Shown: positions 22,319-42,773 of the stretch, piece after piece
Position numbering within the stretch: position 1 is the first letter of the stretch
Layout: every line of letters starts with the position of its first letter
Assembly: GCF_041146345.1 (NCBI RefSeq)
Contig: NW_027191405.1
Span: forward strand, 682,001-746,000
DNA from: Neodothiora populina
Lineage: Eukaryota
Length of the DNA: 64,000 nt
Reading direction: 5' to 3'
The notes under the pieces: generated by a model
Told to the model about the DNA's origin: nothing
Seen by the model: only the letters and a program-made list of their open reading frames with translations
Databases searched by the model: none
Program-made: the position numbers and the translations under genes

Positions 22319-23698
22319 TCACACCACACGGGTGAGATAGGGTTGCATATGAGACGACTCAAGCCATCCGACGCTGTTGAAAGCTTTCCACATACTGCTG
22401 GTTTTGTTGACGTCTGCGCCAACCACACCATGCACGTCAGGGCCCTTGCACTGTTGCTGTGCGGCATTGATGTTGTACGTCTGCTTACGACCCTCAAATT
22501 CGAGTCGTCCGGCGAAGAATCGACGCTTGAGATAGAGGTAACGAGAGCAGGTCAGTGCAAGTTTCGTTGCCAGTTTGACTTCTTTGTCATGCAAGAGACC
22601 TCGGTCGGGGTCGCTGTCGAGATTCAAGGGTTTGCCACCCCAACTCGCTACAAAGTTCACCTTTGGGTCGTCCAACGAGCGTACATTAGGCGTGTAGTCC
22701 TTGTACAAGTTGTAGTGAACATCTGGCTCATCTGACGTTGGCTTAGTCTTCTTGACATGCGGCGCTGGCGTAGCCCGTTTGGCAGTCGGTTTGCGCTCGG
22801 GTTTTGGAGTGGTGTGCACAAAAGGCATGTCGAAAGCTGTCAATGGAGCTTCGCGTGGAGTGGTACGAGTACCCGCGACGCTGGTATCCTGGCCTTCTCT
22901 TCTTCTCTGACGCTTTGCAGAAAGCCCTTGTGCAGCGCTATCCCGCCTGTCTGCTGTCCGCTTGCCAAGTCTTGGTGACAGATCATTGCCCTGGGATGAT
23001 CCTTTGCGAACCATTTCTGTCCCCTGCGAGCCCGTCTTCTTGACTGATGGCCAATAATTCTCGTCTTCCTCTCTCCTGTCTTGGTACCACTTTACCGGGT
23101 TGGCAATGGCCATAGCCCATATACTTGACTGTGCGGGCCGTGCTGGTTCGCTGGGATGTGATTCGGGAGCCTGGAAGGGAACGCATTTTCTCTGCCGCGG
23201 CGTGATTTTCGTAACCAAGTCGGCTTTTGGCAAATACTGCTGGGTTGGGGGAGGGAAAAGCGGTGGATGGTGCTCATCTGCGGTCGCACGTGCGCGCGTC
23301 TGCTCTGGGAAAAGTTGTGGATCGTTGTAGAAATTTCCATTCTGTATGAGAACAGGGCTGCCTAGGAATCCGTTGTAGGAGCCAGCAGGCATATGCGGAG
23401 ACGTCGAAGGTGACATCGGGTGCTGCAAAGCCTCATGGAGAGGGGGTAGGGTTAGGCCTGCATTATTCGGCGACTTATGTTGATATCGAGACACTGGTGA
23501 AGAGGGTATGATCGAATCATTCATTTCATCGATCGGCGAAGGATAAGCGCTCTCGGCTTGAACCTTGCCTCCTGACTTCTTTGCGTCCATGTTCTGAGGA
23601 TCAAATGTCGGGGGCTGGCTCGAGTGTTGATCGAGTACCTGATGATAGTCGTTGTGTGGTGTTTTGTATTGAGGCGTTTTGAGAGGCTGGAAATCCAT
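22319..23698 (-). CDS. SWIRM-domain protein (Fun19/Laf1-like)
   Basis: C-terminal SWIRM-like segment WGGKPLNLDSDPDRGLLHDKEVKLATKLALTCSRYLYLKRRFF...AAQQQC...DVNKTSSMWKAFNSVGWL, with a disordered Pro/Ser-rich N-terminus. The first ATG is at 23698. Confidence 0.8.
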   Translation of the reverse strand: MDFQPLKTPQYKTPHNDYHQVLDQHSSQPPTFDPQNMDAKKSGGKVQAESAYPSPIDEMNDSIIPSSPVSRYQHKSPNNAGLTLPPLHEALQHPMSPSTSPHMPAGSYNGFLGSPVLIQNGNFYNDPQLFPEQTRARATADEHHPPLFPPPTQQYLPKADLVTKITPRQRKCVPFQAPESHPSEPARPAQSSIWAMAIANPVKWYQDRREEDENYWPSVKKTGSQGTEMVRKGSSQGNDLSPRLGKRTADRRDSAAQGLSAKRQRRREGQDTSVAGTRTTPREAPLTAFDMPFVHTTPKPERKPTAKRATPAPHVKKTKPTSDEPDVHYNLYKDYTPNVRSLDDPKVNFVASWGGKPLNLDSDPDRGLLHDKEVKLATKLALTCSRYLYLKRRFFAGRLEFEGRKQTYNINAAQQQCKGPDVHGVVGADVNKTSSMWKAFNSVGWLESSHMQPYLTRVV

Positions 23699-26600
23699 TG
23701 AAATTGGCAGCAGCACTGAACTCTCGATGGACTTGATGGCAATCAATTTCCTGATAGAAATTCGATTGGAAAATAACTCCCTATCTTATACCGGAGGTGG
23801 GAGTGGCAAAGGCGGACTGATTATATGACCTTCGGGGCAACACCCACTTATCTCCGCTATAATTGGCTTTCACACGTGCCAAGACTCCGGTGTTGGGCAG
23901 GATGACTCAATGAGCCGGTTTGAGACGTAGATGTCGTGGCCTGTCTTGTGAGGGGTAGGAAAGGAGTTTGAGGAGGTATTGTGAGGTAATTGTTGAAGAG
24001 AGGCGAAGCAGAATGGCAAACGAAAGAGAAAAGGGGTCGCAAAAGGCGTGTCCAAGGGATGGATGTAGAACCTGTTTTTATCACTGACATTGTGTTGCAC
24101 CACGTGTGGCCCTTACCAATCACTTGACCGGGTGGATAGATGCAAGAAACGCTACAGTACCTCTAAGGCAGCACCAATATCTAACCTACGTTAGGCCCGG
24201 ATCTGGTCGCTGACGAATTGAGATGCTCGGGCGGCGAAAGGAACGCTACCGAATTGATTCGAACATGAGTGGCAGCAGAGGTGGGTGAAGTAAGCCATTG
24301 GCCAATAAAACATGCGGCTAGGCGGTCAGTAAACTCCACCATTAGAGTCCGACGCATTGCAAATCGAGTGACCTGCTGCCTGCTGCTGCCTGTCATGCGT
24401 TGGTGGATGTTACTCTGAGTCAATGAAGACTGATGGCACAGAGTGGCGCACCCAGAATGGCGACTTGGAGAGCGCTTTGACCGCACTTTGTTTGCGGCTC
24501 TGCTGCTACGAATCCAGTCGTCATGATGCAGTACCTTTGTACACACATTATCACTTTCCCATCCTGTGCTTAATCGTCGCTATGATAATACAGAGACTTG
24601 GGACCATGTCTGTTTAATTTAATTTGCTGTCCCTTTACCTCGATGAGTTTGACACCCATGCCTCCCGCCTTTCGGTCAGAAGGGAGTGTGCAGCCCTCGT
24701 CTCGCGAGTGGAATTGATAACCCCGTGAACGTGTTTCTGCTTCTTGGCCCGGGCGAATAATTGCCGCCGAAAGCACTGCCCTCCGACCCTTACCTTACTT
24801 TACAAGGACTGGCTCATGACAGCTCACCACGCCTTGTCGTCTCTCCATTGATGGATGTTCTGTCCGCTGCTGATCTCGGAAGCACCAAGAGACCATATGA
24901 TCAACTTTGACGCTCGAACATGATTGTAGCTATCGCATAGATGGGATCAGTAGACCATTGGTGGCCGCGGCTAAGCGACCGGTCTATCATACGTGCTGGC
25001 TGGCTCTTGCTTGTTGTTCCTCCTGCGTAATGATGCATTACCCCATCAAGTCCTACTATAATCTCGGACCTTAGGGGTCTGAATAGGTCCGTTGAGGTTG
25101 CTCACCCCCCACCCGTCAGCTGTCGAGCCGAGCTGTATCACCTCACACTCCGGGCTCTCATGCTTTCAGACTGTGCAAGCAAGGGCTAATGACCTGTCAA
25201 TTGCATTCAATAGCCCGAAGAGGACCCATTGACACCGCACAAAGTCCAAGCAGAGACTTCAAGTGACTTGATGCATGGCTCCGGTTGAAAGCTATGGGGA
25301 GTGGTCTGTCGGAGGTTGAGTTTGGCACCACTTTCATGTGAAAGCCGTACGATGTGCGTCTTCCTGCATCTGTGCATCGGCGGCTGCACCCTGAACCCCA
25401 CGCGTCCCTCGCTTTGCCGCCTAAACGGGGACTGATCACACGGGCGCATCTGTTTCGATTCGTGCATCGCAGGTACTATGTAGATGCGCCCAAGCCGACT
25501 CCATCACAGCCTCGACTCATCATCTGCCCGCCTGATTGTCGATGAGTGTTTGCGAGAAAAGAGGCATTCGAAGTGTCTGCATGCATGGGCTTGAGGCGTA
25601 CAGCCCGTTTTGATGTATGACATGCTTTCTGATCTGAAATGATAACAAATCAACGTCCATTGACCCAACACCAAAGCGCCTCGTTAGAAGGATCTCAAGA
25701 ATGTGTGCCTTGTATGTGTGTGAGAAGGCCGACTGCAGATGGATGAGTAGCTTATCCCGAACGTGTCATCTGCTGCAACGCAGATCTAGCGGATTCCCTG
25801 CGTAGACCCGCCTGAAGACATTCACAACATTCAAAACGTCTGCCTCCATGCAAACAGGAGTCTGTTGGTACTACTGCTGCATCATGCATTCGAGCGCGAA
25901 GAATTGGTTGTGTCCGCCAACCCCTGGTCATGAATTGGGGGGTTTTCTTGTGCCACATGTCACTGTCCTTAAGGTCTCTCCGAATGCGCGGGTGAATCTT
26001 CTTTTGACCTGACCATCGATATAATCTTGCGACGCAGGTGCAACACAATGGCGGCAACCGCGCGCTGCTTGCCGAGCTACCTCACCTTGGCTGCCTCGCA
26101 TCAGCAATCAACGGCCGGATGCCCCTCCTGCTTGTCATGCATAGATCGTGAAAGTGGAACACATACGGTCCCTTGCCGCAGAGAAGAGGAAAGTATATTA
26201 TACAACCGCTTCTGAGCGAAGACAGAGATAGGTGGAGTCGGACAATGTACATTGTTATCTATCTGCCTTTTTGCGCCATGCCTGTCTCTCTGCACACACG
26301 ACCTCGCTCCACACCTTGCTATATTAGGAGGCGCATGTACGATGTTGCTCAATCTCGATTCAAACAGTACAGAGCGGCGATACATGCAGCCGCTATTGCG
26401 TTTACTTTTGTTATCATGAGAGTCGCGAGGCAAAGAATAGCACACTATATATTACACGGTTCACACTTGTCTGAGCCATACCTAAAGACAGACCACATGT
26501 GCAAAGTGCGAAATACAAGTGCAAGTACAACGCAGACGCAATAAGCCGTAGATGCAACAGTCGCTGTCCTGGATGTTTCTGATAATGACATAGCTGTACA

Positions 26601-28786: not shown

Positions 28787-29973
28787 TCAGCCCTTCTTCT
28801 TGTCGGCGGAATCCTTGGACTTGCTCTTGTCGTCCTTGGCTTGCTCAGTAGACGAAGTACCGTTGAGGGCGAGGCTGTCCTCCTTCTTGATCCTGTCGAC
28901 CTGCTTGTCCTCCTCCTTCTTGGCCTCAATGTCATCTGCCTGCTGCTTGTTCTGGATCTTGTTCTCGATGAGATCGTGGAATGCGGTGATGGCGCGGATG
29001 AGACTGCTGAGGTAGATCGACATGAGCTGGTCGTTTGTCTTGATGCTCATTGCTCTCGAGAGCTCGGACTCTCCGTTGGTGGCGCCGTCGGCCTTTGGTG
29101 TTGATAGGTTGGGTAGCAAATTGAAGATGTCTTGGAGATTGCCTAGAATGGCGTGATTGACGGGCAGCTCTTCATCGATGACTTTCTGGAGGTATTTGCC
29201 AATGTCCTGTAATCGGAGGTGCAGCCCTTGCAATGACTGGAGTTGAGACGTTATCCGGGTAGAGAGAGTTCCAACAGCAACATCTCGAATGTCGCGCAGG
29301 AGATGCTCGACACCAATCTCTTCTGCCTCTTCGGCCTCGATTATCGATGGCGTGTGTACAAATGTCTTTGCCGTCGTGGATCCATCCTGAAATCATCATG
29401 TCAGCAAACTCAATTATCGTGAGCTCTCTCAGACACCGCCTTCTCACATCTCGAATTTCCTCGACCGCAAAGTATGCGTCTGTCGGGACGCCCACATCAC
29501 GAGGCTGGACGTCGATGATGACGAGTAGCGGGTTTGGGGTGTATCTCTTGAACAACTCGTTGACTTCCAGATCCGAGGCGCGCAACTTGGGGCCGGTGTG
29601 ATACCATCCTATCAGCTTTTCCCGCGCGTTGACTTTCTTGAACATGTCGTTCATCCCCTCGACGTAGTTGTGATCCAGAAACCATACTGATGGGTCTTTC
29701 TCGTCCTCCTCAAACGGTACTGTGCGCGGCGCCATCTCGTCAGTCTCAAAGTCGCCTCACGGTCACAGAAACCACTCAGACAAACAAACCTGCAAAACTG
29801 TTCGACACCCTCACGTTCTTTCCATCGTTCTGGCCGAGAAGCACACCGACCACTCGCTTCTTCATGCCCTTTGGCGATCGAGCATAGTGATCTGTGGCGG
29901 AGAGAAGGACTAGCGGAGCGACTGAGACGGTTCTGTTCACCAGAGAGAGAGTTTCTGCAGTGGTGGAAGGCAT
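28787..29973 (-). CDS. RPN8: 26S proteasome lid subunit Rpn8 (MPN domain, multi-exon)
   Basis: [57 protein letters not shown] and [28 protein letters not shown]. Confidence 0.95.
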
Positions 29974-30511: not shown

Positions 30512-32546
30512 CTACACCTGCAGAGCGTTCTCTTCTTCCCACCACTGTCGAAAGATCTGCAACCTGTTGGTGCGTTCTCTTGCATAACGACGTCCTGTGT
30601 CCGTCTGGAATTATGTCAGTGTGACCTTGAAATCAAACGCCGTCCGACACGCGTCTCAACACACCTTCATCATCGTCTCGAGTCTCTCGAGCTTCTCGGA
30701 GAAATGGTTGATGGCGCCCTCAAGGTCTCGGTCAGGCTGCTTTGCGCCACCAAACGCGAAACACCTACCGATGCCGATCGCACCTATTGCATCTAGTCGG
30801 TCTGCATCCTGGACGATGGCGAGCTCGGGATGCTGTTCAAGCACAGCCCGCATCATGCGCGGGTTCTTGATCTCGTTCGAGAAGGATACATTCTTGACGA
30901 TGAGCTGCACCTTCATGGCCAGCGTGGCATCGGCTCCTTGCTCGAGAAGGAACTCTGCGATTTGATTCTCCGGATTCTCACCAGGCCGAGCATACTTGTG
31001 ATCCCCAACATCATGCAGAAGTCTAGCAACGTAAGCTGGCGAAACTCTTGTTTAGCAAACACATGTACTTACGCAGCAAGCAGTACGGCTTGTGCATCAT
31101 ACTGCACACTCTGAAATTGATGCATCTGCTGCGTTTGCAATTCTTGTTGCAGGATCTGCCTGCTCAAGGCGAAGACCCTTGTGACGTGCTTGAAATCATG
31201 AGAAGCATCGTAGCGGGACATATATTCCTGTACAAATTGCTTCGTGGGATAGAAGAGATTGCTGTCTGGTGGGAATAGTCCATCCAGATCAGAGAATGCA
31301 GCAGGCTCTGTAGTCAACGAAGTCTGATCATCGACAGGTGCCGTGTAGGGCTCTGACAAAGCAGGCACCCTGGGTCGCTGCACTTTGCCGGGCAACTTAT
31401 AACGAAGGCGATACTGATCAAGCCATTCACGGTCAAGATCTGGCGGCGGTTTGCCACGATACTGCGGCATTTCTGCGTACAGGGCAAGGGCTCGTGCCTT
31501 GAGTGTGTTTCCATGTACGATCTCACCCTTGGCGATCTCGGCCATGTGCCACTCATGGAGTGCGGCCTCTAGTTCTGGCATCTTTGACGGCACCACTGCC
31601 ATCTTTGTCCTGAACGGGCCATGATTGTGATGGAACTCTTTGATCACAATGACCCATTCATCAGAAAAACGCTTCTTCTGCACGAGTATCTTCATGGGAC
31701 ATCCAGTCTTTCGGCTCATACGATTGCGGACTCTCGCTTCTGGATTGGTTTTGTGATGATCGCGCCATTTGCCACCGAGCTCACATGTCAGCAGAACCCT
31801 ATTGGTCACGTTATGCTTCAAGTAATGGTCAGCATCAATGTCACAATTGCACCATAATAAAATCCATGCAGATAAGGAAATCGCCACGGCAGGCCTCAGG
31901 GCATCCTATCGTTTTTCACTTGTGGTATAGGTCGGCACGGTATGAAAAGTCGAAGAACGACAGCTTACCTTGTCTTTGTACGAGTGGCCTACAACAAGGA
32001 CATAGCTGTTCAGCTTTGCAAAGACCTTGGCGCCGTCGATGGCTGCTTGCTTCGACTCGAAGGCCTGTGGAGGCGGAGGAGGCATTGGCAGATGGCTCAG
32101 TTCTTCATCCCACCTGGAGCGAAGCTCGGCAATACCGTCGGGAGCATTGTTGAAGGCTCTCTGCCACTCAGCCTCGGTCCAGGCAGACTTGGTGTTCCCC
32201 CCAGGTGTGAGACCTGGCTGCATGCCGGGGCTTTCAGACGTGTCATGATCCTGACTGTTCGAAGGACTATATCATGTCAACTACCAGATTCCGCCTACGC
32301 TAGATGATCAAGTACCAACGCTGGTGCAAGCGCTCTGTGAGTAGTCGGTAAAGCTGTCTGGGGCGTCACCTGTGGAGCAACAGCTACAGCTGGTGGCGCT
32401 GGAGTTGCGGCAACCAGAGTTGGGTACGTGCTGTACATATACTGAGCAAAGGGTGAGGGAGTAGCATGTTGAGCCTGCAGAGCCTGTTGACCTGGGACCT
32501 GACTCGTTGGATCACTGTTTAGCGATGGATATAACGTGTACTCCAT
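30512..32546 (-). CDS. FAR1/WRKY-GCM1 DNA-binding domain + CENP-B-type HTH + HD phosphohydrolase fusion protein (5 exons, 572 aa)
   Basis: Exons 32546-32320, 32266-31969, 31815-31073, 31022-30665 and 30604-30512 sum to 1719 nt, in frame, and every intron is GT..AG. FAR1-like C...SRKTGCPM...W...HNH; CENP-B-like [12 protein letters not shown]...LKARA...[11 protein letters not shown] motifs [17 protein letters not shown] and [11 protein letters not shown]. Confidence 0.85.
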
Positions 32547-32774
32547 GTCGACCTATAGCAAGTCCACGAAAAGTGGCGGTCGTTACCTTAACCAGTCTTG
32601 AAGCCTTCCATTTCGGACAGAGTGTAGAAAGTCAACGCAGCTCCGCCAAGAAATGTTTAATCCCCTTGGCCGAGGTCCGACTGCTTGCTCGGAGTTTGTT
32701 TAACGTCAACTCCGTAGAGCGAACATGATCGTCCCCGAAGCTCCTGTGGTATTGCGACAATAGTGAATGCTACC

Positions 32775-34077
32775 ATGGAGTTCTGCAGACAGGCGTCTCG
32801 TACGACACAGGAGATCATCTCTCTGCCTCCGAAGTGCTTGGAGAAATACAGCGACTTTGTCACGAAGAATTCAAGTGCTGTTGGGCAGATAGAAGGGGCA
32901 CTGAGGTCGCTAACATATATCATCCCTGGTATGTATGCTTTATGATCAAGAAAGATATCGCTTTACTCACATCCATCAGGTCGCTTCAGAGATACAGAAA
33001 TCGCATCCGAGTCTGGTGAGTCTGGCTTTTATACTCTGCATTTGACATGCTGCTAACGTTTTACCAGTTCACTCGGGCGTGCAACTAATCTCCCTTTATC
33101 ATGACTCTTTACTTGCGCGCGCAGTGGCCAATTTGCCGGCTCTGCAGAACCGACACCAGTCCCCTCATACTCGCTATACCCGTTTCTGGTCTCAAAACTC
33201 CTCAGCATATAAGCGAGTAGCGCTCACACTGCAAGTCATACAATATGTCGAGCTACTGTGTGAGATGGCTGCGAAACGGCGCGGCGAGAAGGCCCGCTGG
33301 CGCGCAGTCGTACTGCTGGAAGGCATCAAGGCGCTGTGTAGACTACTCCTGATGCGTCTCACACACTCACGGCCCCTTTCAAGTCCTCCCTTGCCGCAGC
33401 GTGAAGTCGATCCTAGCACCCTGGAGGAGAAGCAAGATGATGATGAGGACTCTTCGCCATCCGAGCAATCGGACGAGGCTCACTGGACAATGCCGCGCAC
33501 CGGTCTCACTCTACCAACCTTGCCTTCATCATCTGACATATCATCATATCTCCTCTCCAAGGTTCTCACCGCCGACGACGTAAAGCCTCCCAAAGCGCTG
33601 ATGCACCGAGTGAGTGGAATGGGCGAGCTTGCAGAGGTTCTTTATATTCTGCGCCCACTCATATATGCTGCTGCGATGCAATACTGGGCAAGCAAGAACA
33701 GAAAGAGCTGGCAGCCCTGGGTCCTCGGAGTCGCAGTTGAGTATGGCGCGCGTCAACTTGCGAAGAGAGATTTGCAAGAAAGGAGAGCTGGAGGCATGAG
33801 AGGTCTTACAGCACTCGAGAAGGAAGAGTTGAAGAAGAGAGGATGGGAAATGGGTTGGTGGATGATGAGAGGCGCATTCTACGAAACTTTCACCAAGTAA
33901 GTCACCCTACTGTGATGATCACGTAATTTCACTCTGCTAACTCAACTCATCAGAGCTCTAATCCATTCACTCTCGGCCAAGTTGAGGAAGAAGCCATTGC
34001 TCGACATGGTCGGAGGTATCATTGAGGACTACGAATTTCTTTGGGATCAATACTACTTCCCAACTGCGACGCTATAG
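32775..34077 (+). CDS. PEX16: Peroxisomal membrane protein Pex16 (4 exons)
   Basis: YSDFVTKNSSAVGQIEGALRSLTYIIPG|RFRDTEIASES, HTRYTRFW, WTMPRTG, LYILRPLIYA and WWMMRGAFYETFT. Confidence 0.9.
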
Positions 34078-37608: not shown

Positions 37609-38182
37609 CTATTCCTTTGCACCTTCAACTTTTGCACCCCATTTCTCCCGCCTCTCCTCAGCAAGAAAATCATCGAATGCCCCTGCGGCTCTCTCCCCAC
37701 TCGCCTGTCTGGCCTCGTTTCGCCACTTGAGCGTATTGCGGCCTTCGATTAGGTCCGTCTGCCATTCATGTAGGAAATGCTTGATGTAGGGTGCGTATTC
37801 ATTTCTCAAAGGATGGACTCTGTGGTCCAATGGTGCAGCACGAGTGTCTTGAGGTTGCGGAAGCATACTGTACAGGGCACGCTGCTTATCCTCTGGTAAA
37901 GTAGACCATGCTTCTTCATTTGAGAGGAGTCTCTTGTGTTGATTGTTAGGTTTGCCAGAACAGGAAAGCTTGAGCTACACATTCAGTGCTTAGTACTTAC
38001 TATCACATCTGCTTTGGCAAGCCTTGAATTTGGCTGCGTGAGCAGTCGCGTGTTTCGGTTCATCCTAAGGTCAGAATGTAGAATATTGATGTTATTTGGT
38101 AGTGTGATCGTAGTATATCATGCATATAGTTGTTTTACTGGTCGGCATAAGCTTCGCGCGGGCGCCCGCCGACTATCATCAT
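37609..38182 (-). CDS. Small stand-alone ASX-homology (DEUBAD/ASXH) domain protein; first exon uncertain (alternative start 38063)
   Basis: Spliced product RLLTQPNSRLAKADVI|RLLSNEEAWSTLPEDKQRALYSMLP...FLHEWQTDLIEGR...WRNEARQASGERAAGAFDDF. Confidence 0.7.
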
Positions 38183-38726
38183 ATATATAGGTATTCAAAG
38201 TGCTGCGACTACAGGACAAGATAATTGTTATCTCTTTTCCCTGCTATTTGGCAATGATGATACAAGAACAGGATAAGCAATACCTAGCCGATATACTCCC
38301 ACATTGGCTCATGAGAATTGGCCTTTAGTATCTCCAAAATCATACCACACGATGTTTATGTGAGTTGAGGTACTGTAAGGAAGATTTAAGACATGATTAC
38401 TTGGCCCAAGCGTAGGCATTCTACAGCAGGCAAGCGCGTCTTCCCCCAAAGCACTTCCGCGACACGCATATTGCAGCAAATGCACAGCAATATAAGTGGT
38501 GTGCTTCCGACTTTCACTTGTACATCTCGGCCAATCAGAGTGAAGGATGTCTGCAGAGACTCGACTTCACTCCACTTGTACTCCCAATGCAATCTTCGAG
38601 ACTGATTTAAACATGTGGTGTTGTAATCCCACTCACTCGTGTTGTCCGAACTTTTTTGTCTTTGCCCTTGCAGTCTAATCATACGCTGATGGGGAATCTC
38701 GTGTCTTCGAGCATAGTCCAGAGAAA

Positions 38727-41700
38727 ATGTCTAGGCGCGGGGATGTGATGACCATCTCCTCTGACTCTGATGACTCCGAACCTCAAAAGTCGTATAGTCG
38801 TCTCGGCAGCCTCTTTGCCTCTTCTGCGGAACCAAGATCTCAGAGACCGGCATGGGTGAGTCCTCGTGCGGCTCACATCAAGCAACCCACAGCAAATTCG
38901 AATGCGCGCTACACCACACTTGTTACTGGAAACAGAAGTGATGACTCGGACGTGGAGGAAGTTGCGCCGACAGCATTCAATTTCAGGAAAAGCAGGGACG
39001 ACCACGAGGGTCATGGCATTGGCGCAAAGGGGACACAGCCCAGTAGCACTCTCAGATCCGCCGCGCCGCTGGACAGACGCGACGGCACTTTAGTCTCGAA
39101 TAACGGAGCGGACCTGAATGGTCGTGTGAACCCGAGTGTATCACAGGTTTCCCATACTACAGATACTACTGGACCTCTGTTGCATGTATCCACCCAAGCA
39201 GTGATCAGTGGCGCCGTTCCGACCATGCCTTCCGAGCAAGTTACAGTCAAAAGTGTTCAGAAAGCAAGGCGGACAGGACCTTCTAGTAGACCTCAATACC
39301 GTTCCCCTTATGATCCTCATACAAAGACTCCGAGAAGGACTTCCCAAGCAGTGGCTACAGCCGAAAGCGAGAGTGCAGTGGCAGGTCCCTCTCTACGACA
39401 AGATTTGAAGACGATTCTACCCTCTGGTCCTCCGGTGGTTTCCCATCAAAATTCATCGATTGCGCCTCAACAATCCGTAGCGAAACGCAGAGCAAGCCCA
39501 GATGAAACGCTTGCCGCGCCAGCTGACAACACGAAGCGTGTCAGACTTTCTACGGACGCGAGCCACTCGGATGCACTCGTTCACTCGCCAACACTGTCGC
39601 TGGATCAACACAGCAAGGATATCTCCGTACCTAGCACAGCCTTGAAAACAGAAAAACCGCACCTTCACCATGACCCGAGTCCTGGTGACAAGTTTCCGTC
39701 TCTTGCTGCCCTCTTGCAGCGACTACATCCTGGCGCTTCCCAACCAGAGTCTGCTAAGGTTGAGCAAGCTCCTATGACATCTCTTCTCGAAGGAGTTCCA
39801 AAGGCCATCTCATCAGAGAAGAAAATACCCAGCACAATGTCACAGGAGCAGGCTCCGCCGGTTGTACAGTCCATCGAGTCTGCTTCTCTACCAGCGCCCA
39901 CTAAAGTAAGTGTCACGCCAAAGCTTTCAGAGGATCGTGAGATCACAGGAAACTTGATCAATGAACACAGTGTCTCGGAGGGCGATTCTCTAGAACCATC
40001 GGCCCCAAGCGTGACAGGGAATTCACTTCCACTTCCTGAAGTTCAGCTACGCCCAAGGCCACCTGTAATTAAGGGACAACTTTACACTGAGGACGATGAT
40101 AAGCTCCTACTCCACTTGAAGGAGGTGTTGCACTTGCCGTGGCAACGTGTGGCGACGTATTTTCCTGGTCGGCAGGGTGCTTCACTGGCTGTAAGATATT
40201 CGACGAAGCTGAAAGACCGCTCAGCTGGAGCACCCGCAAGCACAGGCACTGTGCCCGAATCAGGCGACATGCAGTCCACACGCCGTGGCAGACCACGGAG
40301 ATCCGTCATGATTGATATGTCTACTGAGTCGGTTGATCTGACAGACACGGATACAGCAACAGAGCCCCAAGGTGAAATACATCGAAGGATAACCCGACGG
40401 TCACATTTAGGTCCTTCCTCATTACTTAGAGCTAGTGCTGATGTGTTGCCGACACCTCGACCTACCTTTCACACTAGCGAGATGAAACGGGTCCTCGGAC
40501 GGCTTCGCCAGCAAGTGTCGAAATTCTCGTGCGATCGCAGCCTACGAGACAGAGAGCTTGGCCTTACAAGCTACCGCACGCACCCTCATATGTTGCACTC
40601 TTGTCTCAGAGATTATGCATACGCCACGCTTAGTCCCATAATGTACATAGAAGACACATCTGGAGATGTCGCTACCGCAGCTTGGTCGCCGAACGGCCGA
40701 CACTTTGCTGCAGGTTGTGTAGCTACCTCGGATGTCGATTCCATGCAATACAACAAAAGAGGGAATCTCCTGATCGGTGATGCATCCAGGAGGCTTGCCA
40801 AAGAGCTGCCTTATCATCAAGTGTCTCGCCCTATCGTCAACCAAGGCGTCAACGCGACTGAGGAGATGCGAGCGACCCAAGACAAATGCGTATACACGAC
40901 GGTCCAGTCTGTTGCCTTCTCGCCGAGCGCCCGTCGTATGTTTTCTGTGTCGATTGACGGTACAATGAAAGTCTACAAAGTCACTAGAAGCGACGTTCTC
41001 AGAACAGAATTGACCGATACTTCGATACATGATGGGCCTGTAGACCTCCTTTCAGTCAGTCCCAACGGACATGTAGCTACCGGGTGCAGAGTCTCAGGCT
41101 TGAATAACATCATGTTGTTCAGAAAGGGTGGCGAAAAGATCGGTTTCTCCGCAAGCAAGATCACAAGCGCCATGAAAAAATACCCATCTGCGCTACGGTT
41201 TGGGACACATCCTTCACATGATCGGTATCTACTTGCCGGCTTTGCGTGTGAAGCTGAGAGAGTCTACGAAGAGGATGAGATTCACGACAAGGGTGGTGAG
41301 ACGTGTCTGTGGGACATCGAGACGCAAAAGTCAATTGAGCTAGGTGCGACTAATCGCAATGTTTTCGATCTGACATGGAACCCGAACCCAAGTGTTGGCT
41401 CTACTGCGTTTGCTGTCGCCAGCGGAGTATCAGGACGAGTCAACAGGGGAATGCATTCCGTGGTCCGCCTCTACAGCCCCAGCCAGAGCCGAGCTAGAGC
41501 CGGTGTAGAGCTTGAATGCCCAGCTTGGGATATCAACGACGTTGTCTACTCCCCTTACGATGATAATATCATCGCAGCGGGCAGCACTGATGGCAAAGTG
41601 TATATATGGGACACCAGACAAGTGAGGGATTACCAAGGCCCTATGCAAATTCTGGAACACGGGATTCCGCTTAGCGTACTTCCGCATGAAAAGCCACGCT

Positions 41701-42773
41701 GGGAGACAGACACGGGTATTCGATTTCTGTCTTGGGGCGCGGACCATAACCGTCTGTACTCTGGCTCCTCTGACGGCATTGTCAAGTGCTGGGATCCATA
41801 CAGAGCCGACGAGGACAGACATGTTCGAGATGTTGCCTACTTCGATTCTGCTGTCATGTCAGGTGCTTTTAGCCCGGACTACGACAACCTTTTGATTGGT
41901 GAAGACAGGTGTCGCTTGAACGTTCTCTCCGTGGGTCAGGAGAAGGGAATCCCACAGCGAATCACTGTACGCAAGTCTCCAGCCAAATCGAAGTCAAAAT
42001 CAGAATCCGCGAATGCACCTGCAGCCCACATGAATTCACACGAGCTTGTGCAATCAGGCCAAATTATGTTCATGCCCATGGGCGCTTTCCCAGGCAAGAA
42101 AGCAGCAGTACAAGGACCAAACTTCAGAGGTCCCTACAATAACGATCTGGACGCGTCTGAGCTCCGCCAGCAAGCCGCCCAATTCCAAGAAAGTCTTATA
42201 CTCGAACCACTTGCCACGAAATCCTCATCCGAAGATGGATCGCCCAAACAGTTACGACCGGACGAAGTAGATGCTGCGATCGCCGCCGTCGACAAGCTTG
42301 GACGATTCACCGACCGTATGCCGGACGCCTTGCGCAAAGATGAACCACTGTCACCAACGACGGCTCAGAGACGCGGTCTTGTCGTGAAATGCGCCACTTG
42401 TGGCAGTCCTGCGCGCAATGTCGAAGAAGTGGCCGGCGACAGGGAGTATCGTGCGCTGTGCGAGAAGTGCTCTTTCGCTTGCTTCAGATGCTCGAAACCT
42501 ATGCATATCTCCAGAAGAATGCACGCCGTCGAGTGCGAAAGTTGCAGAATTAGTTGGAGGATGAATGTTTTAGGGTATGAAATGATAGACGAAGGAAACA
42601 AGCCAGTCGAAGGCTCTTACAGAGCATTCCCCAGCACCAAGGTGGAGGAGGGTGTAACGGAGATAGAGCCTGAGGTGTGGGACATGGGCGAGGAAGAAAC
42701 CACACGTCAATTCCAAGCTGCAGACTTGGTGAAGATCGAGTCGTTGAAAGTCAAGCAACGCGAAGGGGAGTAA
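38727..42773 (+). CDS. WD40 DCAF, Raf1/Dos1/DIM-9-like, with Myb/SANT-like repeat and C-terminal Cys cluster
   Basis: 1348-aa ORF. Myb-like YTEDDDKLLLHLKE..LPWQRVATYFPGR; SGDVATAAWSPNG...SMQYNKRGNLLIGD; WDxR motif VYIWDTR; CxxC motifs CATC, CEKC, CFRC and CESC. Confidence 0.7.
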   Translation: MSRRGDVMTISSDSDDSEPQKSYSRLGSLFASSAEPRSQRPAWVSPRAAHIKQPTANSNARYTTLVTGNRSDDSDVEEVAPTAFNFRKSRDDHEGHGIGAKGTQPSSTLRSAAPLDRRDGTLVSNNGADLNGRVNPSVSQVSHTTDTTGPLLHVSTQAVISGAVPTMPSEQVTVKSVQKARRTGPSSRPQYRSPYDPHTKTPRRTSQAVATAESESAVAGPSLRQDLKTILPSGPPVVSHQNSSIAPQQSVAKRRASPDETLAAPADNTKRVRLSTDASHSDALVHSPTLSLDQHSKDISVPSTALKTEKPHLHHDPSPGDKFPSLAALLQRLHPGASQPESAKVEQAPMTSLLEGVPKAISSEKKIPSTMSQEQAPPVVQSIESASLPAPTKVSVTPKLSEDREITGNLINEHSVSEGDSLEPSAPSVTGNSLPLPEVQLRPRPPVIKGQLYTEDDDKLLLHLKEVLHLPWQRVATYFPGRQGASLAVRYSTKLKDRSAGAPASTGTVPESGDMQSTRRGRPRRSVMIDMSTESVDLTDTDTATEPQGEIHRRITRRSHLGPSSLLRASADVLPTPRPTFHTSEMKRVLGRLRQQVSKFSCDRSLRDRELGLTSYRTHPHMLHSCLRDYAYATLSPIMYIEDTSGDVATAAWSPNGRHFAAGCVATSDVDSMQYNKRGNLLIGDASRRLAKELPYHQVSRPIVNQGVNATEEMRATQDKCVYTTVQSVAFSPSARRMFSVSIDGTMKVYKVTRSDVLRTELTDTSIHDGPVDLLSVSPNGHVATGCRVSGLNNIMLFRKGGEKIGFSASKITSAMKKYPSALRFGTHPSHDRYLLAGFACEAERVYEEDEIHDKGGETCLWDIETQKSIELGATNRNVFDLTWNPNPSVGSTAFAVASGVSGRVNRGMHSVVRLYSPSQSRARAGVELECPAWDINDVVYSPYDDNIIAAGSTDGKVYIWDTRQVRDYQGPMQILEHGIPLSVLPHEKPRWETDTGIRFLSWGADHNRLYSGSSDGIVKCWDPYRADEDRHVRDVAYFDSAVMSGAFSPDYDNLLIGEDRCRLNVLSVGQEKGIPQRITVRKSPAKSKSKSESANAPAAHMNSHELVQSGQIMFMPMGAFPGKKAAVQGPNFRGPYNNDLDASELRQQAAQFQESLILEPLATKSSSEDGSPKQLRPDEVDAAIAAVDKLGRFTDRMPDALRKDEPLSPTTAQRRGLVVKCATCGSPARNVEEVAGDREYRALCEKCSFACFRCSKPMHISRRMHAVECESCRISWRMNVLGYEMIDEGNKPVEGSYRAFPSTKVEEGVTEIEPEVWDMGEEETTRQFQAADLVKIESLKVKQREGE

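Follow-up and report, generated by a model that had tools for sequence, protein, structure and literature searches.

A candidate nucleotide-responsive, DNA-bound regulator in Dothideomycetes: two transposase-type DNA-binding domains joined to an HD phosphohydrolase

Can two DNA-binding domains of transposase type and a small-molecule hydrolase belong to one intact host protein, and what might such a protein do? The question is raised by a gene on the minus strand of a 64,000-nucleotide stretch of the genome of the fungus Neodothiora populina (NCBI RefSeq assembly GCF_041146345.1, contig NW_027191405.1, positions 682,001 to 746,000 of the forward strand), which is referred to here as the window and in which position 1 is the first letter. 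The original prediction, made from the letters of this stretch, was that a FAR1/WRKY-GCM1 zinc finger of the kind found in Mutator transposases and a CENP-B/Tc5 helix-turn-helix (HTH) of the kind found in pogo transposases had been captured onto an HD nucleotide hydrolase. Judging from sequence comparison, the protein is the Dothideomycete-class version of the conserved YpgQ/YedJ/CN-PDE1 hydrolase, extended by an N-terminal tail and a two-part DNA-binding module, and all of its parts are intact and under purifying selection. The reading that is favoured for it here, with evenly divided confidence, is that of a dimeric, DNA-bound transcription regulator that would respond to nucleotides.

On the open frames, the fusion itself is judged genuine and independent of any splicing model, because exon 3 by itself is open from the second part of the finger, across the HTH and a linker, into the HD motif SHDFKH. 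The same continuity is seen in relatives. A metagenome scan returned 13 loci in which the entire protein has relatives (L001-L013, with near-duplicates L001=L002, L003~L005, L004~L008, L006=L007 and L010~L012) and nine weaker loci, and none of the 13 has an in-frame stop in its aligned parts. In L006, which has 83% amino acid identity to the window, a stretch of 450 codons without a stop extends from the C-terminal part of FAR1 across HTH and linker into the HD domain, where it reaches MMK. In the metagenome open reading frames (ORFs) P0008 and P0010-P0012 the frame is unbroken from a point ahead of the complete finger to '..LAA', where intron 3 is located, and annotated proteins from other genomes carry FAR1, HTH and HD together.

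It is very improbable that the locus yields two separate products or reflects an annotation artefact, with the HD part translated from an internal start such as M370 and the upstream part belonging to a separate or decaying gene. A conserved methionine does precede the HD motif, and the public model from Delphinella (282 amino acids) has the C-terminal part only; that model, however, has its start within the HTH, its first 34 residues being 97% identical to the window, and is therefore considered truncated. Moreover, no stop lies between HTH and HD in exon 3 of the window or in any of the 13 loci, the linker is poorly conserved but still in frame across lineages, and purifying selection on the domains upstream of it is very strong. 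In a Logan contig product (P0001, 83% identical), exons 2, 3 and 4 follow one another without introns, which is suggestive of a spliced transcript, from a contig that may be RNA or not. Two public models of family members look wrong, namely the Delphinella strobiligena protein just mentioned (P0212), which starts within the HTH, and a Zalaria obscura protein of 878 amino acids (P0095), which is fused with the downstream RPN8 and hence reads FAR1+HTH+HD+JAB+MitMem_reg.

The spliced model, rebuilt by script with predicted junctions, comprises five exons on the minus strand and encodes a protein of 568 amino acids (1707 coding nucleotides, single terminal stop; Table 1), so that the 572 amino acids initially given need correction. 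The five-exon structure itself stands: the four introns (65, 153, 50 and 60 nt) are all GT..AG, and the junctions 31969/31815 and 31073/31022, which had been named beforehand, are exact in the rebuilt model. The same is true of the positions of the quoted motifs in the DNA-binding part (LTCELGG 31791-31771, TGCPMK 31707-31690, HNHGP 31629-31615, WLDQYRLRY 31425-31399) and in the HD domain (SHDFKH 31203-31186, LLHDVGD 31021-31001, VQDADRLD 30814-30791), and the N-terminus described as Pro/Gln-rich is found to be Pro/Ala/Thr/Gln-rich in exon 1. The annotated orthologue P0002 (554 amino acids) aligns with the spliced protein end to end, with 75% identity over 555 columns, and the Aureobasidium protein P0003 shows 63% identity to it. 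Intron positions differ between family members: intron 2 is not present in the more distant relatives P0008 and P0010-P0012, where single ORFs cross its position, intron 3 is not present in L003-L008, where exons 3 and 4 adjoin, and intron 4 is not present in L001, L010, L012 and L013.

The HTH starts about ten residues after the zinc finger, lies as a whole inside exon 3 and scores 32.2 bits with the HTH_Tnp_Tc5 profile (PF03221; cut-off 22.2), which is reached in 13 of 14 family members, the remaining one being P0007, which is deleted in this region (17.7 bits). In a sequence search of the PDB with a profile of 11 family members, residues 75-143 of Schizosaccharomyces pombe Abp1 (1iuf) were matched at an E-value of 3e-16 and CENP-B (1hlv) at 0.005, and the residues W..R.R of the HTH are invariant among 19 aligned proteins. 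No match to a first, psq-type HTH (CENP-B_N or HTH_ABP1_N) was obtained in the window pieces or in the scanned orthologues, and the finger holds that place; among the family scans, only P0021, which is considered further below, has the pair HTH_ABP1_N + HTH_Tnp_Tc5.

In the zinc finger, the ligands are C182, C210, H234 and H236, which form a C...C...HxH pattern and are invariant in 19/19 aligned proteins, with CCHH likewise kept in 13/13 metagenome loci. The exon-3 half of the domain scores 22.6 bits with the Pfam FAR1 profile (PF03101; cut-off 28.1), a value that covers the C-terminal half only, as intron 2 splits the domain. Predicted folds were made for the orthologues P0002 and P0008, which stand in for the window's own spliced protein. 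The model of the N-terminal half of P0008 has a mean predicted local distance difference test (pLDDT) score of 80, rising to 94-97 in both DNA-binding domains; its finger consists of a helix followed by four strands, and its HTH matches the three-helix fold of DNA-binding domain 2 of CENP-B. When this model was compared with 48,161 PDB representative chains without Foldseek prefilter (VIA), CENP-B residues 70-131 ranked first (Z 8.5, root-mean-square deviation 2.0, 62 residues, 31% identity) and Aft2 bound to DNA second (Z 8.0, root-mean-square deviation 2.3, 73 residues), both standing 3 units clear of the third-ranked chain (Z 5.2). The top Foldseek rows for the N-terminal half were Aft2 (E 0.014), WRKY18 (E 0.04) and CENP-B (probability 0.97). 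Weight is given to the CENP-B and Aft2 matches for their agreement with the sequence profiles and for the clear gap that separates them from the other rows. Both domain assignments of the original prediction are thus borne out, the first pattern as a FAR1/WRKY-GCM1 domain by a below-cut-off match of its C-terminal half to the Pfam FAR1 profile, the invariant ligands and the Aft2-like predicted fold, and the second as a pogo-type CENP-B/Tc5 HTH by a Pfam score above cut-off, the Abp1 profile match and CENP-B as the top fold; a complete lack of profile or structural matches, which would have spoken against it, is not what was found.

The C-terminal domain had been likened, from its motifs, to the YpgQ/YedJ family, and the likeness extends to profile, fold and active site. 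The Pfam HD profile gives 21.1 bits (cut-off 22) on an exon piece that holds half a domain, as intron 3 splits it, and is above the cut-off in 9/9 orthologues holding the domain. Over the whole HD domain, the family profile matches the PDB entries 3b57 (6e-34), 3dto (1e-31), 5dqv (YpgQ, 2e-28) and 3gw7 (YedJ, 8e-19). The full model of P0002 has a mean pLDDT of 69.8, with residues 1-89 and the linker disordered, and its predicted HD fold aligns with YpgQ at a template modelling (TM) score of 0.73 (E 6e-6). For YpgQ, the available portion of a review lists H29, H58, D59 and D124 as Mn ligands and H25, R136, F140 and H158 as other active-site residues (PMC8177086). In a HMMER alignment to 5dqv, in which the chain numbering is offset by six, the ligands map to H381, H422, D423 and D493 and the other four residues to H377, R505, F509 and H525; all eight are present, and the metal ligands are retained in 13/13 metagenome loci. 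The active site thus looks intact. The NCBIfam YedJ equivalog (cut-off 286 bits) is not reached by P0002 (51 bits) or by a stand-alone fungal member (62.9 bits), and by this measure both are homologues, not equivalogs, of Escherichia coli YedJ.

As far as the available portions of the respective papers go, YpgQ is a Mn-dependent homodimer that hydrolyses (deoxy)nucleoside triphosphates, (d)NTPs (PMC8177086), Arabidopsis CN-PDE1, whose family is said to be present in one copy across life outside animals, is a phosphodiesterase stimulated by cyclic guanosine monophosphate (cGMP) (PMC6692503), and a related enzyme from Streptomyces acts as a nucleoside monophosphatase (PMC11592144). A homodimer was also predicted for the HD domain of P0002, with a score of 0.69 against 0.00 for the best control, a mark reached by 20 of 30 proteins solved as same-chain pairs and by 1 of 23 solved as single chains; agreement of contacts between runs was at least 97% and the partner pLDDT at least 83. 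Since YpgQ has already been solved as a homodimer, this pass may reflect likeness or memory only.

Purifying selection is stronger on the DNA-binding domains than on the HD enzyme. With the Nei-Gojobori method and codons anchored on window residues, the least saturated pair, L003 and L004, gives a ratio of nonsynonymous to synonymous rates (omega) of 0 for FAR1 (dN 0 over 103 codons, dS 0.60), 0.009 for the HTH, 0.02 for the helical part, 0.054 for HD and 0.32 for the linker. Between the window and L006, synonymous sites are saturated (proportion of synonymous differences, pS, about 0.8), hence the proportion of nonsynonymous differences (pN) was used, which is 0.047 for FAR1, 0.012 for the HTH, 0.076 for HD, 0.24 for the linker and 0.22 for the N-terminal tail; in the latter (residues 1-96), amino acid identity is 57% and the pN of 0.22 compares with a pS of 0.78. 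The N-terminal domains of the orthologues, where neutral evolution or stops would have contradicted the prediction, have open frames, invariant ligands and a constraint exceeding that of the HD domain.

Is the gene then a transposon or part of its host genome? It is a genuine host gene with a fixed chromosomal place, because the order with PEX16 and RPN8 is kept, the Zalaria model is merged with RPN8, and neither a transposase domain nor terminal inverted repeats are seen. No transposase domain was found in the gene or in 17 scanned flanking ORFs, and tblastn with MULE (Mutator-like element) and pogo transposases detected no MULE or DDE_1 catalytic domain in the 64-kb window, where it matched only the two DNA-binding segments of the fusion gene, which is present there in one copy. 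Among the inverted pairs between 29800 and 33100, no terminal inverted repeats bracket the gene; there are six such pairs of 14-26 nt, five of which are 73-87% complementary and one of which, of 14 nt, is exact. The initial statement that neither a DDE domain nor terminal inverted repeats are visible thus extends to the gene, the flanking ORFs and the window.

The RPN8-PEX16 position had been proposed as the place to look for the gene in related fungi. PEX16, gene and RPN8 follow each other in this order in 6 of the 13 metagenome loci (L003, L004, L005, L008, L010, L013), and RPN8 alone adjoins the gene in L006, L007, L009 and L012, whose contigs end before PEX16, so that RPN8 is kept in 10/13; L011 is too short for a synteny call. 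L001 and L002, which lie on contigs of 198 and 254 kb and represent a 48%-identical relative, have neither PEX16 nor RPN8 within 5 kb, therefore synteny is not universal. PEX16 is transcribed divergently and its likely first exon (32718-32945, plus strand) lies about 230 bp from the ATG of the fusion gene. PEX16 and the fusion gene probably share a bidirectional promoter. In an alignment of the upstream intergenic regions of the window, L006, L004 and L003 only the first exon of PEX16 aligned and no conserved regulatory footprint was found. Other genes of the window include a WD40-repeat frame of 1364 codons (38679-42770, plus strand), a SWIRM ORF (22322-23785, minus strand) and an ASXH ORF (37612-37974, minus strand).

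Table 1. Coordinates of the fusion gene, its exons, introns and protein regions, and its neighbours in the window
Feature	Position	Strand	Basis
Whole gene (ATG 32546-32544, stop 30514-30512)	30512..32546	-	End-to-end alignment with orthologues P0002 and P0003
Exon 1, residues 1-77, Pro/Ala/Thr/Gln-rich low-complexity N-terminus	32316..32546	-	Spliced model, composition
Intron 1, 65 nt, GT..AG	32251..32315	-	Sole frame-keeping GT..AG choice
Exon 2, residues 78-171: end of tail, helical part, MPPPPP motif, first third of FAR1	31969..32250	-	
Conserved helical part, residues 97-132, in exon 2	32086..32193	-	92% identity with L006
FAR1/WRKY-GCM1 zinc finger, residues 133-240, split by intron 2	31609..32085	-	Pfam FAR1, zinc ligands, Aft2-like predicted fold
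Intron 2, 153 nt, GT..AG, interrupts FAR1 domain	31816..31968	-	Spliced model
Exon 3: second FAR1 part, HTH, linker, start of HD (SHDFKH...LLAA), one open frame	31073..31815	-	ORF 31069-31905
CENP-B/Tc5 pogo-type HTH, residues 246-316, recognition helix WLDQYRLRY	31381..31593	-	Pfam, PDB profile, predicted fold
Variable linker, residues 317-357	31258..31380	-	pLDDT <50 in models; fastest-evolving part
HD phosphohydrolase, YpgQ/YedJ/CN-PDE1 type, residues 358-568, split by introns 3 and 4	30515..31257	-	PDB profile, residues, predicted fold
Intron 3, 50 nt, GTAAGT..AG, phase 2, within HD domain	31023..31072	-	Spliced model
Exon 4, middle of HD domain	30665..31022	-	Pfam, spliced model
Intron 4, 60 nt, GT..AG	30605..30664	-	Spliced model
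Exon 5, last 30 residues and stop, C-terminal HD helix	30512..30604	-	Kept in orthologues; within predicted dimer interface
RPN8-like gene (JAB/MPN + MitMem_reg), downstream neighbour	28790..29756	-	Domain scan of flanking ORFs
PEX16, divergent neighbour	33046..33897	+	Pex16 match 1.2e-96

How widely the architecture is distributed was addressed with exon 3 as the query of an exhaustive search through 1.84 billion cluster representatives, which returned 84 proteins at E <= 0.001, only 9 of them at E <= 1e-30, the weaker matches covering single domains. The full architecture is present in 12 named Dothideomycete species, and all named sources are Dothideomycetes. They comprise Dothideales (Aureobasidium, Zalaria and Taxawa, plus the truncated Delphinella model), Myriangiales (Elsinoe, Myriangium), Trypetheliales (Viridothelium) and Acrospermales (Pseudovirgaria), together with two Cryomyces species and two unclassified isolates. 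Some family members are labelled in UniProt merely as 'HTH CENPB-type domain-containing protein'. Stand-alone HD relatives of about 215-260 amino acids occur across Pezizomycotina at 55-63% identity, many of them in Mycosphaerellales and Botryosphaeriales, whereas in Leotiomycetes a Clr5 domain (PF14420) precedes the same HD domain in 45 of 120 proteins among the matches listed. This Clr5+HD architecture was confirmed in three proteins (P0197, P0134, P0120), and the genera in which it is seen include Botrytis, Monilinia, Cadophora and Hymenoscyphus.

In a quick tree of the HD domain (LG+G4, 51 rows), the sequences from Dothideomycetes group together (98% support), with fused and stand-alone forms intermixed, and the state of the N-terminal module changes four times, at least two of these changes being forced by well-supported branches. 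The Clr5 forms constitute a separate clade (100% support), and Clr5+HD is therefore regarded as an independent fusion. When the 17 fused rows are constrained to one group, the log-likelihood falls by 20.4 units, with a p-value of 0.055 in the approximately unbiased (AU) test, hence neither a single gain nor a gain with later losses is rejected. P0021, a singleton of 423 amino acids (NCBI source, 3.3-kb contig), combines HTH_ABP1_N and HTH_Tnp_Tc5 with an HD domain that contains a long insert. It was considered as the family ancestor and rejected, since its HTHs are nearer to pogo-type proteins (37-43%) than to the HTH of the family (about 26-39%), and the window HTH is nearer to pogo transposases (40-42%) than to P0021 (31%). 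By these identities, P0021 appears to be either a capture of its own or, given its 3.3-kb contig, a chimeric model.

As to the source of the DNA-binding domains, the best finger match outside the family among the cluster representatives is P0019, a protein of 727 amino acids with FAR1 and MULE transposase domains (E 1e-10), and the HTH matches DDE_1 pogo-type transposases (P0032, P0037) at 40-42% identity; many other matches are finger or HTH proteins without transposase. The proposed capture from two transposon superfamilies is thus supported by sequence relationships at the family level only, in that MULE and pogo relatives are found, while the immediate donors could be factors that were already domesticated. 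Querying the ESM Atlas with the DNA-binding portion of P0002 returned no match that could be used. P0020 (289 amino acids) has a Pro/Gln-rich tail, a PPPPP motif, a FAR1 finger with 40% identity to the window and the start of the HTH, after which it diverges; it is probably a remoter family member, interrupted by an intron or by the end of the contig. L014-L020, short metagenome contigs that match the FAR1 part only (31-33% identity), are probably unrelated finger proteins or Mutator-like elements.

These origins leave room for a role in transposon defence, in which finger and HTH would still recognize Mutator-like or pogo-like ends and bring the hydrolase or silencing partners to them, much as S. 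pombe CENP-B homologues do at retrotransposons. We consider this unlikely. The nearest outside relatives do include the MULE transposase P0019 and the pogo DDE_1 transposases P0032 and P0037, and the parallel Leotiomycete fusion uses Clr5, a domain named after a silencing factor. However, identity to transposase domains is just 31-42%, no transposon is present within the 64-kb window, and the family is old, extending over several orders, with DNA-binding domains that are almost frozen, which argues for a fixed host target rather than for fast-changing elements.

A nucleotide-responsive regulator would account for the parts as follows. The HD domains would pair as in bacterial YpgQ, and the dimer would present two modules of finger and HTH to DNA and bind specific sites; the HD domain would bind and hydrolyse a nucleotide, for instance a (d)NTP or a cyclic one, and the nucleotide state would thereby be coupled to action at the bound sites. 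The logic would be that of the bacterial 'trigger enzymes', such as BirA, NadR and PutA, and not that of a local depletion of a diffusible pool; by our own reasoning, local depletion of dNTPs is physically weak for a freely diffusing substrate. Two DNA-binding modules on one dimer are the usual design of a site-specific regulator, and this reading is favoured because constraint is tighter on the DNA-binding domains than on the enzyme, because a Pro/Gln-rich tail is present, because a diffusible substrate gains little from tethering and because the same enzyme gained nuclear heads independently.

The main rival, which appears rather less than probable to us, is a DNA-tethered working enzyme with no regulatory role, whose module would only deliver the hydrolase to chromatin, where it would clear (d)NTPs that are damaged or in excess close to sites of replication or repair, or act on a nucleotide group at DNA or RNA ends. 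It is suited by the fully conserved active site, by purifying selection on the HD domain (omega 0.054), and by the repeated gain of DNA-binding or chromatin-type heads, which fits an enzyme working at DNA; YpgQ hydrolyses (d)NTPs, and a role in DNA repair or replication fidelity is suggested in the available portions of two papers (PMC8177086, PMC6692503). On the other hand, freely diffusing small substrates would by our reasoning benefit little from tethering, DNA-binding domains that are more constrained than the enzyme, together with a Pro/Gln-rich tail, are more typical of a sequence-specific regulator, and an activity on nucleic-acid ends was not found for this subfamily in the available portions of the literature searched.

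Several observations weigh against the regulator as proposed. An intact and constrained active site suits a working enzyme equally well as a sensor, and the equivalent of H158 is L in L001 and L002. The Pfam cut-off for FAR1 is reached in 4 of 14 family members (28.2-31.1 bits), while 8 of 14 remain below it (21.2-27.3 bits) and 2 of 14 give no match. Foldseek gave no match for the N-terminal half at E <= 0.001, and Z-scores of 8.0-8.5 are close to the typical best of the tool (7-8) for models without a clear Foldseek match.

More tentatively, it is conceivable that this enzyme, a housekeeping hydrolase present in a single copy in most of life, became DNA-binding at least twice in filamentous ascomycetes, perhaps three times (FAR1+Tc5, Clr5 and P0021), with the fungal enzyme having its role on DNA as a 'trigger enzyme'. 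If true, repeated capture of nuclear heads would mean that the native role of the fungal enzyme is played out on DNA, and the Dothideomycete form would be a trigger enzyme of eukaryotes, a transcription regulator whose activity on DNA depends on the nucleotide (dNTP or cGMP-like) that is bound and destroyed by its catalytic part. A role linked to DNA gains in likelihood from the fact that another fungal class independently added a different nuclear domain to the same enzyme. All three domain families are well known, and transposon DNA-binding domains are already known to become host factors; what had no description in the papers searched is the joining of two such domains from different transposon superfamilies to an intact small-molecule enzyme, a fusion that is under strong selection across several fungal orders. 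The family could hence serve as a compact test case for the assembly of new regulators out of mobile-element parts and offers a handle on the cellular role of YpgQ/CN-PDE1 enzymes in eukaryotes. Aureobasidium can be grown and transformed, and the relatives in this genus (P0003) make the idea directly testable.

The architecture had been put forward as one without a characterized counterpart. Literature searches indeed found no description of FAR1 + Tc5 HTH + HD and no paper on the Clr5 + HD fusion, but the architecture is not unique to N. populina, being conserved across Dothideomycetes and unnamed in public databases. The closest known systems are the YpgQ/YedJ/CN-PDE1 enzymes, which are homologous over the whole domain to the C-terminal 210 residues and share the H..HD..D site and four further active-site residues, and YpgQ forms a homodimer of the kind that is likewise predicted for the HD domain of P0002. 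These enzymes stand alone at about 200-240 amino acids, whereas the fusion protein has about 357 extra N-terminal residues, and the known members differ in substrate, namely (d)NTPs in bacteria, cGMP in Arabidopsis and a nucleoside monophosphate in the related Streptomyces enzyme. The Leotiomycete Clr5+HD proteins carry the same HD orthologue with an added N-terminal nuclear-type domain, but their head is a different one (PF14420) and they form a separate clade in the HD tree.

On the DNA-binding side, human CENP-B and S. pombe Abp1/Cbh1/Cbh2 share the second DNA-binding domain, including the recognition helix W-L-D-x-[FY]-R-x-R. In contrast to CENP-B and Abp1, the fusion protein has a zinc finger instead of the first HTH, has no DDE_1 domain and ends in an enzyme. 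Aft1/Aft2, Candida Rbf1 and plant FHY3/FAR1 belong to the same zinc-finger family (Pfam FAR1/AFT), with an Aft2-like predicted fold on the side of the fusion protein, but are pure transcription factors, among which no fusion to a CENP-B HTH or an HD domain was found in the available portions of the literature. FHY3/FAR1 retain a dead transposase core. The available portion of the WRKY-GCM1 survey describes how transposase domains turn into host proteins, a route also proposed here, reports a fungal fusion of the finger with an isochorismatase, the enzyme being proposed as a small-molecule sensor, and makes no mention of a phosphohydrolase fusion (Babu et al., 2006; PMC1702500). P0062 (241 amino acids), with a FAR1-like N-terminus followed by isochorismatase, is a fusion of this type. 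The WRKY-GCM1 + isochorismatase proteins likewise combine a transposon-type finger with an enzyme in filamentous fungi, but with another enzyme fold and without the second DNA-binding domain that characterizes the Dothideomycete proteins.

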